DNA of 40,209 nt from a virus. The position numbers were made by a program, and so were the translations under genes. Positions 21,492-26,537 of the stretch are shown here, piece by piece (positions within the stretch are counted from its first letter, which is position 1; each line of letters opens with the position of its first letter). The notes beneath the pieces were generated by a model, which was not told the origin of the DNA, searched no databases, and saw nothing but the letters and a program-made list of their open reading frames with translations. The DNA is taken from IMG/VR virus record IMGVR_UViG_3300020410_000413; one strand, written 5' to 3'.

Positions 21492-21499
21492 TATTTATT
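21492..21499 (-). promoter_or_regulatory. T4-type late promoter
   Basis: AATAAATA immediately upstream of the ATG at 21486. Confidence 0.55.
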
Positions 21500-24400
21500 A
21501 TGCTTGAGCAGGTTGTGGCATTGGAACAGGTACCATCCTAGGTATAGGAACAGGTGTTTGAATCTCTACCAACTTCTCTAGTAACATAGGAACTGGTATG
21601 AACTCAAGTGATGACTGCATAGCATACTCTCTTGACATACCACCTTTCTTATTACTCATAGACTTTGCAGTTTGTGACATGATACCAAGCACCTCTGGTT
21701 TGACACCTAATTCAGCTGCCATATTTCTTAGACCGTTAACGAGTCCACCAGGACCACCTGCTCCCATCATACCTGTGATAGTTCTAAACAGTCCACCAAA
21801 TCCCATACTGTCTGCAATGTTACCTATCAATCCCATTGGTGAGAAACCATGAGGACCAAAGGAATCTAAACCAAATAACTGAGACAAACCTGGTACGTTA
21901 GCAACACCAGGTATCATACCAATCAGTCCACCTACGGCTGGGAACTTTTTCATGAACCCACCGAACTTATTAAGCATTCCTGATACACCTTCTGGTAGTA
22001 TTGATCCAAGACCGCCCATCAGTCCACCTAATGCTCCACCAATACCTCCCTGCATAAACCCACCTAATGCTTTACCAAATGGATTATTAGACATGAAGTT
22101 ACCAAACTTATCTGCAACACCACCAAAAGTACCAGGGAACATACCACCTAGAGCACCGATACCACCAGTAATTGCACCAAATATATCACCAGATGCAGCA
22201 GCACCTATAGCACGAACAGCACCTATAAATGGTGCAGCAGGAGGAAATACTATTGGAACAATAGTTCCTAAAATACTACCGATAGGTGAACTAACTACAC
22301 TTTTTACAACGTTAGTAACACCTTTAACTACACCACTAATTGCTTTAGTAACACCTCTGAATATCCTACCAAAGAAGAACTGCTTGGTGTTTAGTCGAGG
22401 TAACCTTCTTAATAATTTACCACCAGTTTCAAAACCAAATGGATTCCACCAAGCCTTTTTCTTCTTTGCTGTATCTGTCTTCTTAGATCCAATACCAAAG
22501 GCACCCTCTGGCATTGTGTCTCCATATCTTTCGTTGTCTGACTCTACACCTTTATATTCTTCCTCAGGTACAAAAGGTTTTGTCTTATAGGAAGATCCAA
22601 AATCTATACCCTCTAATGGGTTATGTTTCTTACCATGCTTTCTTTCATATGGACTTACATATTCTTTCTTCTTTTCTTTAGGAGTGATACTAAATGATCC
22701 TTCTGGGAATGTATCACCATACCTTTCGTTGTCTGTTTCTACACCTTTGTATTCACTTTGCGGAACAAAAGGAGTAAATTTATAGTCAAGGAAAGGATTT
22801 ATATTTTTCTTTTGTATTGCATTGACCTGTCCAATAGGAGTTGTTACACCATCCTTTTTATAACCAATTATTCTACCGCGTCTATTCTTTATAGGAACTC
22901 CTCTACTATCACCCTCAGCTTCCGAACCAGTAGTTTCTCCTGATGTACCAGCAAGATTACCTTCACCATCAGTGCCATCACCTGCGACACCATCCATTTT
23001 CTTACCAGTTTCAACCTTACCTGTTCCTGTATCTCCTGCTTCTGGGAAGAATGATTTGTGTAGTAATGGGAATGTGTTACCAGTAAGGTTTGCCATCCAG
23101 AAGACGTTGGGTATTTCTTTACCCATCATCATGCCAAACGGACCAAGCATAGCCTTCATGGCTACCTTAGCACCTGCCCAGATCTTATTTCTAAATGGTG
23201 TTAACTTAGGGATCCATTTAGGAGGATCTTTAGGGAAGTCTGGTATCTTAAACTTAGGAATACCTTTATAGAATCTTGTCCATCCACTCTTTATCCAACT
23301 CAACATCTTAGTGAACTGTCTGAACAGACCCATCATGTCATCTTTTAACTTCTGACCTGCTGCCTTCCAGCCACCACCTTTGAATCCAATGTATAATAAC
23401 TCACCAACATATTCACCACCCATCATACCTATGAGTGATCCTATACCTGGTACTGGTATGAATGTACCTAATGCTCCACCGACAGCTGAACCCAGTGTTT
23501 TAAATATTACTTTGTCCCAAGGATCACCATTTAGTATAGAAAATACGGCTGTTAAAAGTGAACCAAAGATAGGTATTCTACCAAAGGTATTTTTAAATGC
23601 ATTACTAAGAAGTTTTACATTATTTTTTCCAAGAAACTTTAAAGCACCACGACCAAACCCTCTGTTCAATCCTTTGCTTAAGATTTTACCTTTAGGTGCA
23701 GTGGTAGGTGAGAGACCTGATGTCTTAGGTGGCGGCTTAAATGCAGATGGATTTTTATTTGCTAATCTTTGTACTCTTTTAAGTGCTTGCTCTCTACTTA
23801 ATCCGTTCTTAAGTGCGTCACGATATACTTTCTCACCATTCTTACCAAACTTTTTAAAGATAGGATTGTTACCTGTCTTTACTTTCTTACTAAAATCCTT
23901 GACTCTACTGTTGACTCTACTATTACTATTAGATGTGTTCTTATTGTTAGTACGAGATTGTCTGTTTGGATTATAAAAATCCAGATTCAACATGCGAAGG
24001 ATAGAATCCATCAATCCAAATGGATTTAACAACGCTTGTAGTCCTACTATCCCTAGTAGTAATGTTCCTAAACCTTTTAACCTACCCCAAAAACTATTGT
24101 TACCATCAACTAATGCAGAGAATCCATCTAGTATTTTGGTTACACTACCCTTTGCAAATCCATATAACTTCTTGACTACAAAACTTAATTTCTTTAAGAA
24201 GACTGCTATCTTTTTTATCTCTCCTGCATCTGACATCCATGTTAGGAGACCTTTTATAGCAAGTAGATTTACAAGACCTGCAACAAATTGCATTGCAGAT
24301 AGTAATAGTCCCTGTACACCACCAAAGAGTGCCTTACCAAAACTTACAAGAGCACTCTCCTTTGGTTTCTTTATCTGTGATTTCTTTATCTTACCAATAC

Positions 24401-24683
24401 CTTTCCCCTTTAAGGCATTCTGTCTTTCAAACTCGTCTTCATTTCTTTGATCCCTTTCACGTTGTAATCTACGACGCTCAGTTACCTCCCTCATCTTATC
24501 AACTTTGATAGATGCAAGAGATATCTCATGAAGATCTTTTACTACAACACCAATACTATTGACAGTCTTCCCAAGACGATTGACCGCTAAAAGATTAGTC
24601 CTAGGACCGTTAGAAGCAAGAGTCTTCTTACCACTTCCGCTAGGATTAACTAATTTGTAAGGGTCTATTTTTGGGTTAGCCAC
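21498..24683 (-). CDS. Tape-measure-like / hub protein (paralogue of 18385..21486)
   Basis: 1061 aa, GTG start. N-terminus is similar to its neighbour (KIDPYKLVNP vs KINVYKLISP; NRLGKTVNSIG vs NNLGACINSIG), with long Gly-rich amphipathic tracts. Confidence 0.6.
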   Translation of the reverse strand: MANPKIDPYKLVNPSGSGKKTLASNGPRTNLLAVNRLGKTVNSIGVVVKDLHEISLASIKVDKMREVTERRRLQRERDQRNEDEFERQNALKGKGIGKIKKSQIKKPKESALVSFGKALFGGVQGLLLSAMQFVAGLVNLLAIKGLLTWMSDAGEIKKIAVFLKKLSFVVKKLYGFAKGSVTKILDGFSALVDGNNSFWGRLKGLGTLLLGIVGLQALLNPFGLMDSILRMLNLDFYNPNRQSRTNNKNTSNSNSRVNSRVKDFSKKVKTGNNPIFKKFGKNGEKVYRDALKNGLSREQALKRVQRLANKNPSAFKPPPKTSGLSPTTAPKGKILSKGLNRGFGRGALKFLGKNNVKLLSNAFKNTFGRIPIFGSLLTAVFSILNGDPWDKVIFKTLGSAVGGALGTFIPVPGIGSLIGMMGGEYVGELLYIGFKGGGWKAAGQKLKDDMMGLFRQFTKMLSWIKSGWTRFYKGIPKFKIPDFPKDPPKWIPKLTPFRNKIWAGAKVAMKAMLGPFGMMMGKEIPNVFWMANLTGNTFPLLHKSFFPEAGDTGTGKVETGKKMDGVAGDGTDGEGNLAGTSGETTGSEAEGDSRGVPIKNRRGRIIGYKKDGVTTPIGQVNAIQKKNINPFLDYKFTPFVPQSEYKGVETDNERYGDTFPEGSFSITPKEKKKEYVSPYERKHGKKHNPLEGIDFGSSYKTKPFVPEEEYKGVESDNERYGDTMPEGAFGIGSKKTDTAKKKKAWWNPFGFETGGKLLRRLPRLNTKQFFFGRIFRGVTKAISGVVKGVTNVVKSVVSSPIGSILGTIVPIVFPPAAPFIGAVRAIGAAASGDIFGAITGGIGALGGMFPGTFGGVADKFGNFMSNNPFGKALGGFMQGGIGGALGGLMGGLGSILPEGVSGMLNKFGGFMKKFPAVGGLIGMIPGVANVPGLSQLFGLDSFGPHGFSPMGLIGNIADSMGFGGLFRTITGMMGAGGPGGLVNGLRNMAAELGVKPEVLGIMSQTAKSMSNKKGGMSREYAMQSSLEFIPVPMLLEKLVEIQTPVPIPRMVPVPMPQPAQA

Positions 24684-24879
24684 TTGCTTGTTGAGCTGCT
24701 TGTTGATCCTTCATTCGTTTCTCTTCTTCTCTTAAGAAGTCGATTAACATTGTGACATAGATTTCCTTCTCCCAAGGCATAAGGTTTTCAATGTGTTCTA
24801 TATGCCATTTGTGATGATGTATTAATGCAAAGTTAGTATCATAATACTGTCTCAGTGTATTATGGAGAAGGGCTATCCG
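24676..24879 (-). CDS. gp51: gp51-like (baseplate hub assembly) reading frame lacking its own start codon; not in the ORF track
   Basis: The -1 frame relative to gp26 reads RIALLHNTLRQYYDTNFALIHHHKWHIEHIENLMPWEKEIYVTMLIDFLREEEKRMKDQQAAQQASG*. YYxTNFAL..HHKW...IENLMPWE..IY is the short cyanophage gp51-type motif. The first ATG (24780) falls after half of that motif. Confidence 0.8.
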   Translation of the reverse strand, partial: RIALLHNTLRQYYDTNFALIHHHKWHIEHIENLMPWEKEIYVTMLIDFLREEEKRMKDQQAAQQASG

Positions 24880-25583
24880 AAAAAAGATGCTAGACCTTCT
24901 AGTGTAACGTCGCTCACTACTTTAGTGTTTGGGTTAGTAACCTTAAGTGTGTGAGTTAACTTAGGCATTGTCTCAAAGAATTGTTGAACATCTTTAAACT
25001 GAGCTGAACTCATTGAGTCTAAAAATTCTAACACTTCTTTATGAGGCATGTTCTTACAGTCATGTACTTCTTCTGGTGTAGTGACACTCTTCACACAACT
25101 TGCTGCCATCTCAAAGATTTGATCTACATCTTGTCCGTCATTAACGAAGTTTGCTTTAACAAATGTATCAAGACTTGGGTAGTCCATAGTAATTAAGATC
25201 TCATCTGATATCTTAATCTCTCTGCTATGACCTTTAGTCTTCTTAACTTTGATAGAATCAAGAGGGATCTTAACTTCTACCTGTGTTTCATTATCATCAG
25301 GGCAGGTCACACCTACATCTACACTCTCACCAACAGACTTGGTTCTGATCTGTAAGAATACAAATTCAATATCAAATGTTGGTAGTGCTTCTACGTCTTT
25401 AATATCAGTGCAAGCTGCAATGATATCTTTGATAGCATTCACAATACTATCTTGGTTGCCAGTTTCAGTAGCAATTAATAGAACTTTCTCTTCCTTGACA
25501 AGGAATGGTCTATAGTTTACAACTCTACCGTCAGACGGTAGTTTCATTTTAAATTTTGGGGTTACTAAGGTCGGTAATGCCAT
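24873..25583 (-). CDS. gp26: Baseplate hub assembly protein gp26
   Basis: MALPTLVTPKF...YRPFLVKEEKVLL...FDIEFVFLQIRTKSVGE...CPDD...LEGLASFFG. Confidence 0.88.
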   Translation of the reverse strand: MALPTLVTPKFKMKLPSDGRVVNYRPFLVKEEKVLLIATETGNQDSIVNAIKDIIAACTDIKDVEALPTFDIEFVFLQIRTKSVGESVDVGVTCPDDNETQVEVKIPLDSIKVKKTKGHSREIKISDEILITMDYPSLDTFVKANFVNDGQDVDQIFEMAASCVKSVTTPEEVHDCKNMPHKEVLEFLDSMSSAQFKDVQQFFETMPKLTHTLKVTNPNTKVVSDVTLEGLASFFG

Positions 25584-25619: not shown

Positions 25620-26537
25620 CTAGAAGTTATATGTGATCCACTTAGATCTATCCTTTACTGTTCTAACAGATGCCTTTCTAGGATCGTGTTGATGATCACC
25701 AGGAATATGTGCTTCATGAGTTCCCCAGTCGGTATACGATGGAACATAGTATCTATATCGTTCAAAATAAAATCCTACAGTCAGTGTATTAACTCTTGAC
25801 TCCATGTTATTCAACTGAGTTGAACCTAGATTAAATGGGAACACCTGTCTCAGTTCCCACATAGCAACGATACGATTTCGTTGTGGCATTCCAAGCCATC
25901 CCTGTCCAGTTCCACATTTCTTTACGTATGATGCCCACCTATCTTTATCAAAAATACTAAGTATATTTCCTCCTCCTCTCTCCCATTTGAATATCCTTAC
26001 TACAGGTGCACAATAATTATCATAGAAATCTACATATTGATCTGCATCATTCCTTGTGAATGCCATCCATCTTTCAAAAAGTGTTCTTGTCTTATGGTTA
26101 GCTGGAACCTTGAATGTCATACTTACTTGACTGAAGTTAGTACCAGTAATATATCTGTGCGGTGAACCCATTGTAACTAATTGTCCAGTCGCCATCTGTT
26201 TACTAGGTAAACTTACGCTATCACAATAGTAATCTAATAAGAATGCCTCATCATTATTACTTAAAGACCAACCTGGTTGACTACCAAACATGGAGGGTGT
26301 AAGAAAATGCACCGAGTACATGTTAGTGTAACTAGGATTGTTCTGTAGTTTTCTAGAGAACGCAAGGAACTCTTGGAAAGAACTATCTCTAGCATCTTGT
26401 TGATTAGGAACTGATCCTCCAAACAAATTATACTTAGAGTTAAATGCTGCAGCATAATCTTGTAGTGTCTGATCAAATGCAGGACCTATTGAGTTGAATA
26501 AGTTTGATGTAACGGATGATATTAATGATCCTAACAT
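25620..26537 (-). CDS. Tail-tube-like baseplate protein (gp19/gp54 family)
   Basis: YYCDSVSLPSK, MTF....KTRTLFERWM and WELRQVFP.NLG..QL.....LTVGFYFERY are tube-fold motifs. Confidence 0.7.
   Translation of the reverse strand: MLGSLISSVTSNLFNSIGPAFDQTLQDYAAAFNSKYNLFGGSVPNQQDARDSSFQEFLAFSRKLQNNPSYTNMYSVHFLTPSMFGSQPGWSLSNNDEAFLLDYYCDSVSLPSKQMATGQLVTMGSPHRYITGTNFSQVSMTFKVPANHKTRTLFERWMAFTRNDADQYVDFYDNYCAPVVRIFKWERGGGNILSIFDKDRWASYVKKCGTGQGWLGMPQRNRIVAMWELRQVFPFNLGSTQLNNMESRVNTLTVGFYFERYRYYVPSYTDWGTHEAHIPGDHQHDPRKASVRTVKDRSKWITYNF

Follow-up and report, generated by a model that had tools for sequence, protein, structure and literature searches.

How is the gp51-type domain expressed that is encoded directly behind gene 26 in a T4-like virus? 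The question is raised by IMG/VR record IMGVR_UViG_3300020410_000413, a viral DNA stretch of 40,209 nucleotides (nt) that is referred to, in its full length, as the window, and in which this domain occupies an open reading frame (ORF) in the -1 frame relative to gp26. The first-pass annotation had proposed that a -1 shift on a slippery heptamer near the gp26 stop codon fuses the two products, that gp26 and gp51 are the pair of tail assembly chaperones (TACs) upstream of the tape measure gene, and that stand-alone gp51 annotations are cut short. Comparison with related loci supports each of these proposals: the fusion by an invariant heptamer, by selection acting in the -1 frame and by a collinear gp51 in T4; the chaperone pair by a TAC fold and by gene order; and the incompleteness of gp51 by the absence of a conserved start codon, with five different annotated starts or omission of the gene. 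As judged from these sequence comparisons, the fusion of gp26 with the C-terminal domain (C-domain) is very probably made through the T_TTT_TTC site.

A slippery heptamer at the end of gp26

The window features discussed here are located on the minus strand, on which genes read from high to low coordinates (Table 1). The 3' end of gp26 has the sequence GCA TCT TTT TTC GGA TAG, and recomputation from the window confirmed on this strand both the gp26 ending and the position of the heptamer one codon before the stop. It also confirmed that the -1 frame stays open for 67 codons after the two Phe codons (69 codons when both Phe are counted) and that this part is free of ATG, GTG and TTG before position 24780. 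The entire open frame, which is read as ...SIFFRIALLHNTLRQYYDTNFALIHHHKWHIEHIENLMPWEKEIY..., comprises 81 codons and extends from 24921 to a TAA at 24678-24676. Its first potential start codon, the ATG at 24780-24778, is located beyond the most conserved block of the domain (YYxTNFAL..HHHKW). The predicted fusion has a length of 235 + 67 = 302 amino acids (aa), which agrees with the originally predicted products, a gp26 of 236 aa and a fusion of about 302 aa.

Table 1 Features of the gp26 junction and flanking genes in the window
Feature	Position	Strand	Remark
gp26, putative short chaperone form (TAC-N), 236 aa, 0 frame	24873..25583	-	
Slippery heptamer T_TTT_TTC, proposed shift site	24885..24879	-	
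0-frame stop codon TAG of gp26, one codon past the heptamer	24875..24873	-	
-1 continuation FFRIALLHNTLRQYYDTNFAL..., predicted gp51-type C-domain of the long form (TAC-NC)	24676..24885	-	ends with TAA
Nearest 5' stop of the -1 frame, closing that frame upstream of the shift site	24922..24924	-	
Shine-Dalgarno (SD)-like GAAGGT, 8 nt 5' of the heptamer, candidate element	24899..24894	-	
AU-rich hairpin of 8 bp, 14 nt 3' of the heptamer	24840..24864	-	
Tail-tube-fold gene, 305 aa, directly upstream of gp26	25620..26537	-	phrog_45
Gly-rich protein of 1061 aa, inferred tape measure	21498..24683	-	position, length, composition

The comparison set consisted of 80 IMG/VR loci encoding gp26 relatives and 17 GenBank loci (loci are numbered with an L where a number is needed), and a non-redundant set was composed of 27 cyanomyovirus junctions with pairwise identities below 93%. 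By itself, the heptamer is not rare in the AT-rich window, where 9 copies of TTTTTTC are found against an expected number of 11.6 ± 3.3; it is its position and conservation, not its mere presence, that set the site beyond chance. TTTTTTC is invariant in 27 of the 27 junctions, among which gp26 identity goes down to 55%, and the stop codon of gp26 is TAG in every one of them. The three synonymous sites within the heptamer carry 2.0 bits each, as compared to a mean of 0.79 bits at upstream third positions. Throughout, the Phe-Phe pair is spelled TTT TTC, though TTT accounts for 69% of the local Phe codons, and the codon that precedes it is AGT, TCT or GCT, with a varying amino acid and a constant final T. 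Every cyanomyovirus junction can be written as NNT TTT TTC, at most one G-initial codon, and TAG; for the IMG/VR loci, the distance from there to the YY motif in the -1 frame is exactly 29 nt. The same signal is kept in 12 of 12 named cyanophages (Syn33, ACG-2014g, S-CAM8, WH25-B, P-SSM3, S-RSM4, P-TIM68, S-CREM1, S-SRM01, S-CAM1, MC09 and S-RIM4), whose gp26 proteins are between 70% and 39% identical to that of the window. Alignment of the gp26 3' ends across cyanomyoviruses therefore revealed what the first-pass annotation had anticipated, a conserved heptamer and a -1 frame that precedes any Met.

The site is also found in relatives that do not infect cyanobacteria. Pseudomonas phage Milchi, Stenotrophomonas phage Yut2 and Aeromonas phage 65.2 all carry T_TTT_TTC, and their C-domain is encoded in the -1 frame. 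In Vibrio phage ValKK3 (L091), the same heptamer and -1 C-domain are combined with an ATG that overlaps the gp26 stop codon (TAATG), and Pseudomonas phage pf16 has a run of seven T residues at the junction. Shift site and -1 frame are thus conserved in five T4-like phages outside the cyanophages. An ATG overlapping the stop is present as well in Vibrio phage K475 (L088), of which the junction reads CTT TTT GCG TAA TG. Escherichia phage Cba120 (L089; GAG ATT TTC ATT TAA) lacks a canonical heptamer, and its C-domain is encoded by a -1 ORF that is not annotated. Translational coupling or another shift site may be in use in the lineages of K475, ValKK3 and Cba120.

An important argument for the fusion is provided by the pattern of selection around the junction. 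In the 27 junctions, the periodicity of conservation changes from the 0 frame to the -1 frame at the heptamer and stop codon, and between the TAG and the YY block the first and second codon positions of the -1 frame are near 2 bits and the third position near 0.1-0.5 bits. The residues F1, F2, R3, L6, H8 and L11 of the -1 peptide (FFR..L.H..L) are invariant and are all encoded 5' of any candidate start codon. The Arg codon, CGN, begins 5' of the 0-frame stop, where it overlaps the last 0-frame sense codon, which varies between G, A and E. Since the Arg codon spans this last sense codon, selection in the -1 frame starts 5' of the gp26 stop, and reinitiation after that stop is thereby excluded. 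No -1-frame stops occur after the heptamer in the lineages compared. Directly 5' of TTT TTT, a -1-frame stop is present in L048, L065, L066, L074, Aeromonas phage 65.2 and MC09, which leaves the heptamer as the only entry point to that frame.

Regarding initiation, no start codon for the gp51 domain is conserved across the cyanomyoviruses compared, and the element that is invariant is the heptamer. This is reflected in the sequence records. In the GenBank loci L001-L003, L092-L098 and L100-L101, gp51, where annotated, is a protein of 31-61 aa with an ATG or TTG start at one of five different positions, and in S-CAM8 and S-CAM1 it is unannotated. The label used in GenBank and RefSeq is 'gp51 / baseplate hub assembly catalyst'. 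None of the 17 GenBank/RefSeq cyanophage and T4-like records examined joins the two frames into one coding sequence of some 300 aa, and each of the phage records matched contains a single copy of gp26 and of the C-domain.

The two parts of the predicted fusion and their counterpart in T4

The window gp26 is a member of Pfam family PF12322 (T4_baseplate), which it matches over residues 9-235 with an E value of 5.7e-73 and 245.6 bits (cut-off 24.5), and it also matches phrog_150 (E 3e-80). Pfam gave no match for the -1 ORF, but phrog_634 ('baseplate hub assembly catalyst') was matched by it at positions 55-120 of the 121 in the profile, with an E value of 2e-30. The -1 ORF also matches the C-terminal extension of the gp26 profile phrog_150 (positions 231-276 of 282), which implies that some members of the gp26 family hold this domain in frame. 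The PF12322 part and the phrog_634 C-domain are adjacent in the window and would be joined into one polypeptide by the predicted shift.

AlphaFold2 models of the two parts had a predicted local distance difference test score of 84 for gp26 and of 83 for the C-domain, which is helical in the model. When the gp26 model was compared to 48,161 chains with VIA-align, residues 1-87 matched the TAC of phage HK97 (2OB9; Z 7.4, root mean square deviation 3.7, 83 residues aligned), and the second and third matches were 3FGX (Z 7.1) and 3KLU/YqbN (Z 7.0), followed by a next match with Z 4.7. Z scores below 8 are middling in absolute terms, and the weight of this result lies in the gap to the next match and in the top three all being TACs; 2OB9, 3FGX and 3KLU are the three solved TAC-family proteins (PMC9603447). 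With Foldseek, no PDB entry matched the gp26 model at E ≤ 0.001. As far as a predicted structure allows, these comparisons support a TAC fold for the N-terminal domain of gp26.

It is instructive to compare this arrangement with that of T4, in which genes 26 and 51 are indeed separate, as the first-pass annotation stated; they are divergent neighbours. The PF12322 family is common to the window gp26, T4 gp26 (208 aa) and T4 gp51 (249 aa), and the two T4 proteins are paralogous (BLASTP E 2e-6). T4 gp51 carries PF12322 over residues 1-201 plus a C-tail, spans positions 13-280 of phrog_150, and matches phrog_634 with residues 147-246. It reads in frame across the equivalent of the cyanophage shift junction (...SFFRIALLHNTLRQYYDTNFAL...LMPWE in the cyanophage). 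A BLASTP comparison of T4 gp51 with the -1 ORF gave no match (E 7) and the C-domain aligned only weakly to T4 gp51 in a direct comparison by hhalign (E 0.054), though at residues 208-244, where a match was expected, so that the homology between the two is concluded from the PHROG profile matches. The profile and family matches support the view that T4 gp51, with a gp26-like domain followed by a C-domain, is homologous to the predicted fusion, with the two parts collinear and in one frame.

T4 gp26 itself ends with ...GLKEFFELL. The GL..FF junction motif is thus common to the window gp26 and T4, and in T4 its Phe-Phe is encoded by TTC TTT, without a slippery run (L084:3803-3850, minus strand). 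T4, which encodes the long form separately, has lost the run and kept the amino acids, and this is what would be predicted for a recoding signal. The two layouts differ in other respects as well. In T4 the long form is a separate, divergently transcribed paralogue, whereas the window has one gene with an overlapping -1 ORF; and in T4 genes 27 and 28 are located between 51 and 29, whereas the pair in the window is positioned directly upstream of the putative tape measure gene.

Proposed ribosomal shifting and its alternatives

In the mechanism that we propose, most ribosomes would read ...TTT TTC GGA and stop at TAG, which would yield the 236-aa gp26 (TAC-N). A minority would slip back by one base: the tRNA-Phe molecules of the P and A sites would exchange their pairing with UUU UUC for one with UUU UUU. 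These ribosomes would then read CGG AUA GCC... for 67 codons to produce a 302-aa TAC-NC, of which the gp51-type C-domain is helical in the model. If lambda gpG/gpGT can serve as a guide, the tape measure protein, whose gene follows immediately downstream, would be coated by the N-terminal part that both forms share, and the rare C-domain would connect the complex of chaperone and tape measure to a component of the hub or tube. The ribosomal nature of the shift, its efficiency and all binding partners of gp26 and of the fusion are proposals.

The first-pass annotation had also named two candidate stimulators, and both were found at the positions where it had placed them. As stimulators, neither of the two was upheld. 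The hairpin is formed by CATAATAC (24864-24857), which pairs with GTATTATG (24847-24840), and has an energy of -6.9 kcal/mol (z = -0.5 against shuffled sequences). The full set of 8 pairs is confined to the clade of the window and to L083, with 4-7 pairs elsewhere. Given this weak energy, the distance of 14 nt and the lack of conservation, the hairpin is probably a clade-specific and incidental structure. The SD-like element, GAR GGN, encodes the conserved Glu-Gly of an LEGL motif and cannot be distinguished from that coding constraint; its spacing differs in non-cyanophage relatives. The Glu codon of LEGL is GAG in 15 of the 27 junctions as compared to a local background of 30%, which gives GAGGG at 8 nt 5' of the heptamer, but the count is uncorrected for relatedness and the excess, coming from related sequences, is not independent evidence. 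It may be taken as a weak hint that an SD-like stimulator is selected for. A contribution to the shift may also come from the stop codon close by.

Several observations weigh against a ribosomal shift that yields a chaperone pair, or limit its extent. RNAalifold, applied to four intervals around the site, predicted no consensus structure, and since the SD-like element is inseparable from the constraint of coding for Glu-Gly, the efficiency of shifting could be very low. In P-SSM3, P-TIM68 and S-SRM01 an ATG is present 7 codons ahead of the YY block, and in ValKK3 and K475 the gp26 stop is overlapped by TAATG; in these cases a separate small gp51 product is possible. The T6 run could equally serve slippage of RNA polymerase, which would give an identical protein, so that the sequence does not discriminate between the two events. 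The identity of the 1061-aa protein as a tape measure is deduced only from its position and composition. Finally, experimental confirmation of the frameshift was not found in the literature searched.

The explanation that deserves to be considered first as an alternative is transcriptional slippage, in which RNA polymerase would add one U on the T6 run and the resulting U7 messengers would be translated normally to the same 302-aa fusion. Such a process would be compatible with a signal that is a homopolymer, with the longer run in pf16, and with the fact that no conserved ribosomal stimulator was found. The constant X_XXY_YYZ phase of the site is of no help in choosing between ribosomal and transcriptional slippage, since it is forced by the coding of Phe-Phe. 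However, in the 27 and 12 cyanophage junctions the T run is never lengthened, though TTT TTT would still encode Phe-Phe. Moreover, six T residues is short for a bacterial RNA polymerase, of which productive slippage has been documented on runs of about nine or more. We regard transcriptional slippage as improbable, and a ribosomal frameshift as the likely event.

It is very unlikely that gp51 is made as a stand-alone small protein, be it from an internal ATG, from a CTG or ATA codon, or by termination and reinitiation after the TAG of gp26. This is what the GenBank annotation depicts, and the few clades with an ATG shortly ahead of the YY block and the TAATG overlap in the two Vibrio phages would fit with it. 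On the other hand, a start codon is neither conserved nor present in the window before 24780, where the YYxTNFAL..HHHKW block has already been passed; every candidate start lies 3' of the codons for the invariant residues; the -1 frame is under selection already on the 5' side of the 0-frame stop; and T4 gp51 possesses the domain fused in frame. A chance T run at the gene's end, with the decaying or non-functional remains of an ORF behind it, might be suspected from the common occurrence of TTTTTTC in the AT-rich window, but is effectively ruled out by the comparative data, in which, across the genera of cyanophages and further T4-like lineages, the site is invariant and the -1 frame is under purifying selection at the protein level.

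Neighbouring genes, known systems and annotation

In the window, a phrog_45 tube-fold gene, gp26, the -1 ORF and a long Gly-rich gene follow each other in this order. The upstream gene matches phrog_45 'tail tube' with an E value of 1e-47. At this position, the annotation of Aeromonas phage 65.2 has a 'baseplate tail tube initiator' and that of ValKK3, Milchi, S-CREM1 and S-SRM01 a 'tail tube', and the 305-aa gene of the window is the positional equivalent of a T4 gp54-type tail tube initiator. Prediction of a complex between its product and the C-domain gave a score of 0.00, a value that weighs neither for nor against binding.

The 1061-aa product of the downstream gene matches phrog_790 'endolysin' from end to end, and its RefSeq cyanophage homologues carry the label 'endolysin'. 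No Pfam enzyme domain was detected in the protein at E ≤ 0.1, and BLASTP revealed no similarity to T4 gp29. The positional equivalent in ValKK3 does match phrog_58 'tape measure' (E 1.6e-6). From its location after the chaperone pair we infer that the protein is more likely a tape measure than an endolysin.

The start codon of this gene, a GTG at 24683-24681 that is located about 190 nt past the gp26 stop, shares 8 nt with the stop of the -1 ORF (GTGGCTAA, 24676-24683), and an overlap of the -1 ORF with this GTG, which had been noticed before, is thus confirmed. The next gene starts within 1-11 nt of overlap with the -1 ORF stop in 54 of 62 distinct junctions (loci L001-L101), mostly with 8 nt in common and mostly with GTG, a weak start codon. 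An overlap of start and stop suggests that synthesis of the tape measure protein is translationally coupled to shifted ribosomes. It can be speculated, although we consider it rather unlikely, that the frameshift serves as a gate for tape measure synthesis, with mainly those ribosomes that have shifted reaching the start codon of the gene. If this were true, the amount of tape measure protein would be tied to that of the long chaperone form. Since genes T and H of lambda also overlap by 8 nt, as in the window, gating could by analogy be a general feature of G/GT-type modules.

A known system of this kind is lambda gpG/gpGT, and a -1 frameshift is conserved in TAC genes (Levin et al. 1993; Xu et al. 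2004; reviewed in PMC5009743). Lambda and the window have the same order of tail tube, chaperone, -1 ORF and tape measure gene (V-G-T-H in lambda), a slip site near the stop of the short form, a -1 ORF without its own start, and the same 8-nt overlap between the end of that ORF and the tape measure start. With HK97 gp13, a gpG-type chaperone, the window gp26 has the fold in common. The heptamers are different (G_GGA_AAG in lambda, T_TTT_TTC in the window), sequence similarity between lambda gpG/gpGT and the window gp26/-1 ORF is not detectable, and the window gp26 is larger than a lambda-type chaperone, having some 150 residues in addition to the TAC fold. T4 gp26 and gp51 act in assembly of the baseplate hub, and binding of the tape measure or tube as in lambda is proposed for the window pair by analogy.

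That a tRNA-Phe can slip from UUC to UUU on bacterial ribosomes is known from the G_GUU_UUC site of T7 gene 10 (Condron et al. 1991, cited in PMC5009743), and the event in the A site during expression of 10A/10B is the same as that proposed for the window. Unlike the window site, that of T7 is in a capsid gene, has another codon in the P site, and needs a distant 3' element. A further parallel is offered by the Vandenendeviridae and Andersonviridae, in which a conserved GTTTTT -1 site occurs in TAC-N genes, as described for Pseudomonas phage Adele (PMC12846349). There too, a poly-T site is located at the 3' end of TAC-N, and a downstream 'hypothetical' ORF was reread as the C-domain of TAC-NC with the same comparative argument. 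The phage and protein families are different from those of the window, and the T run is shorter.

For T4-like phages, a recoding review from 2016 described G-T frameshifting as conserved in long-tailed phages 'except T4' (PMC5009743). The TAC genes of T4-like phages, with gp26 and gp51 in T4, have since been reported by Vladimirov, Gautam and Davidson (Virology 2022, 566:9-15; PMID 34826709), a study which we know through two papers that cite it (PMC10885494, PMC12846349). According to the PRFect paper, some T4-like phages have a short gene and a separate, longer fusion gene instead of frameshifting (PMC10885494), and the Adele paper refers to the same study for poly-T -1 signals in T4-like TAC-N genes (PMC12846349). 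Our literature searches on frameshifting in gp26/gp51 returned nothing relevant besides the papers citing Vladimirov et al. (2022). As represented in these citing papers, a short form gp26 and a long form gp51, with a poly-T shift, have been published in outline since 2022 and are not new.

In practical terms, the consequence lies in how the fusion is annotated in the records of cyanophages and other T4-like phages. The 17 records examined list a gp51 of 31-61 aa or nothing at all where a joined product of about 300 aa would be due, and the tape-measure-like neighbour is often called 'endolysin'. Most T4-like lineages, including the abundant marine cyanomyoviruses, carry a G/GT-type signal, and it is the two-gene layout of T4 that is the exception. 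As to the closest relatives of the window, a gp26 that is 100% identical is present in three metagenomic viral contigs of IMG/VR (L004-L006), and among cultured phages it is Prochlorococcus phage P-SSM3 that has the closest gp26, with 70% identity.

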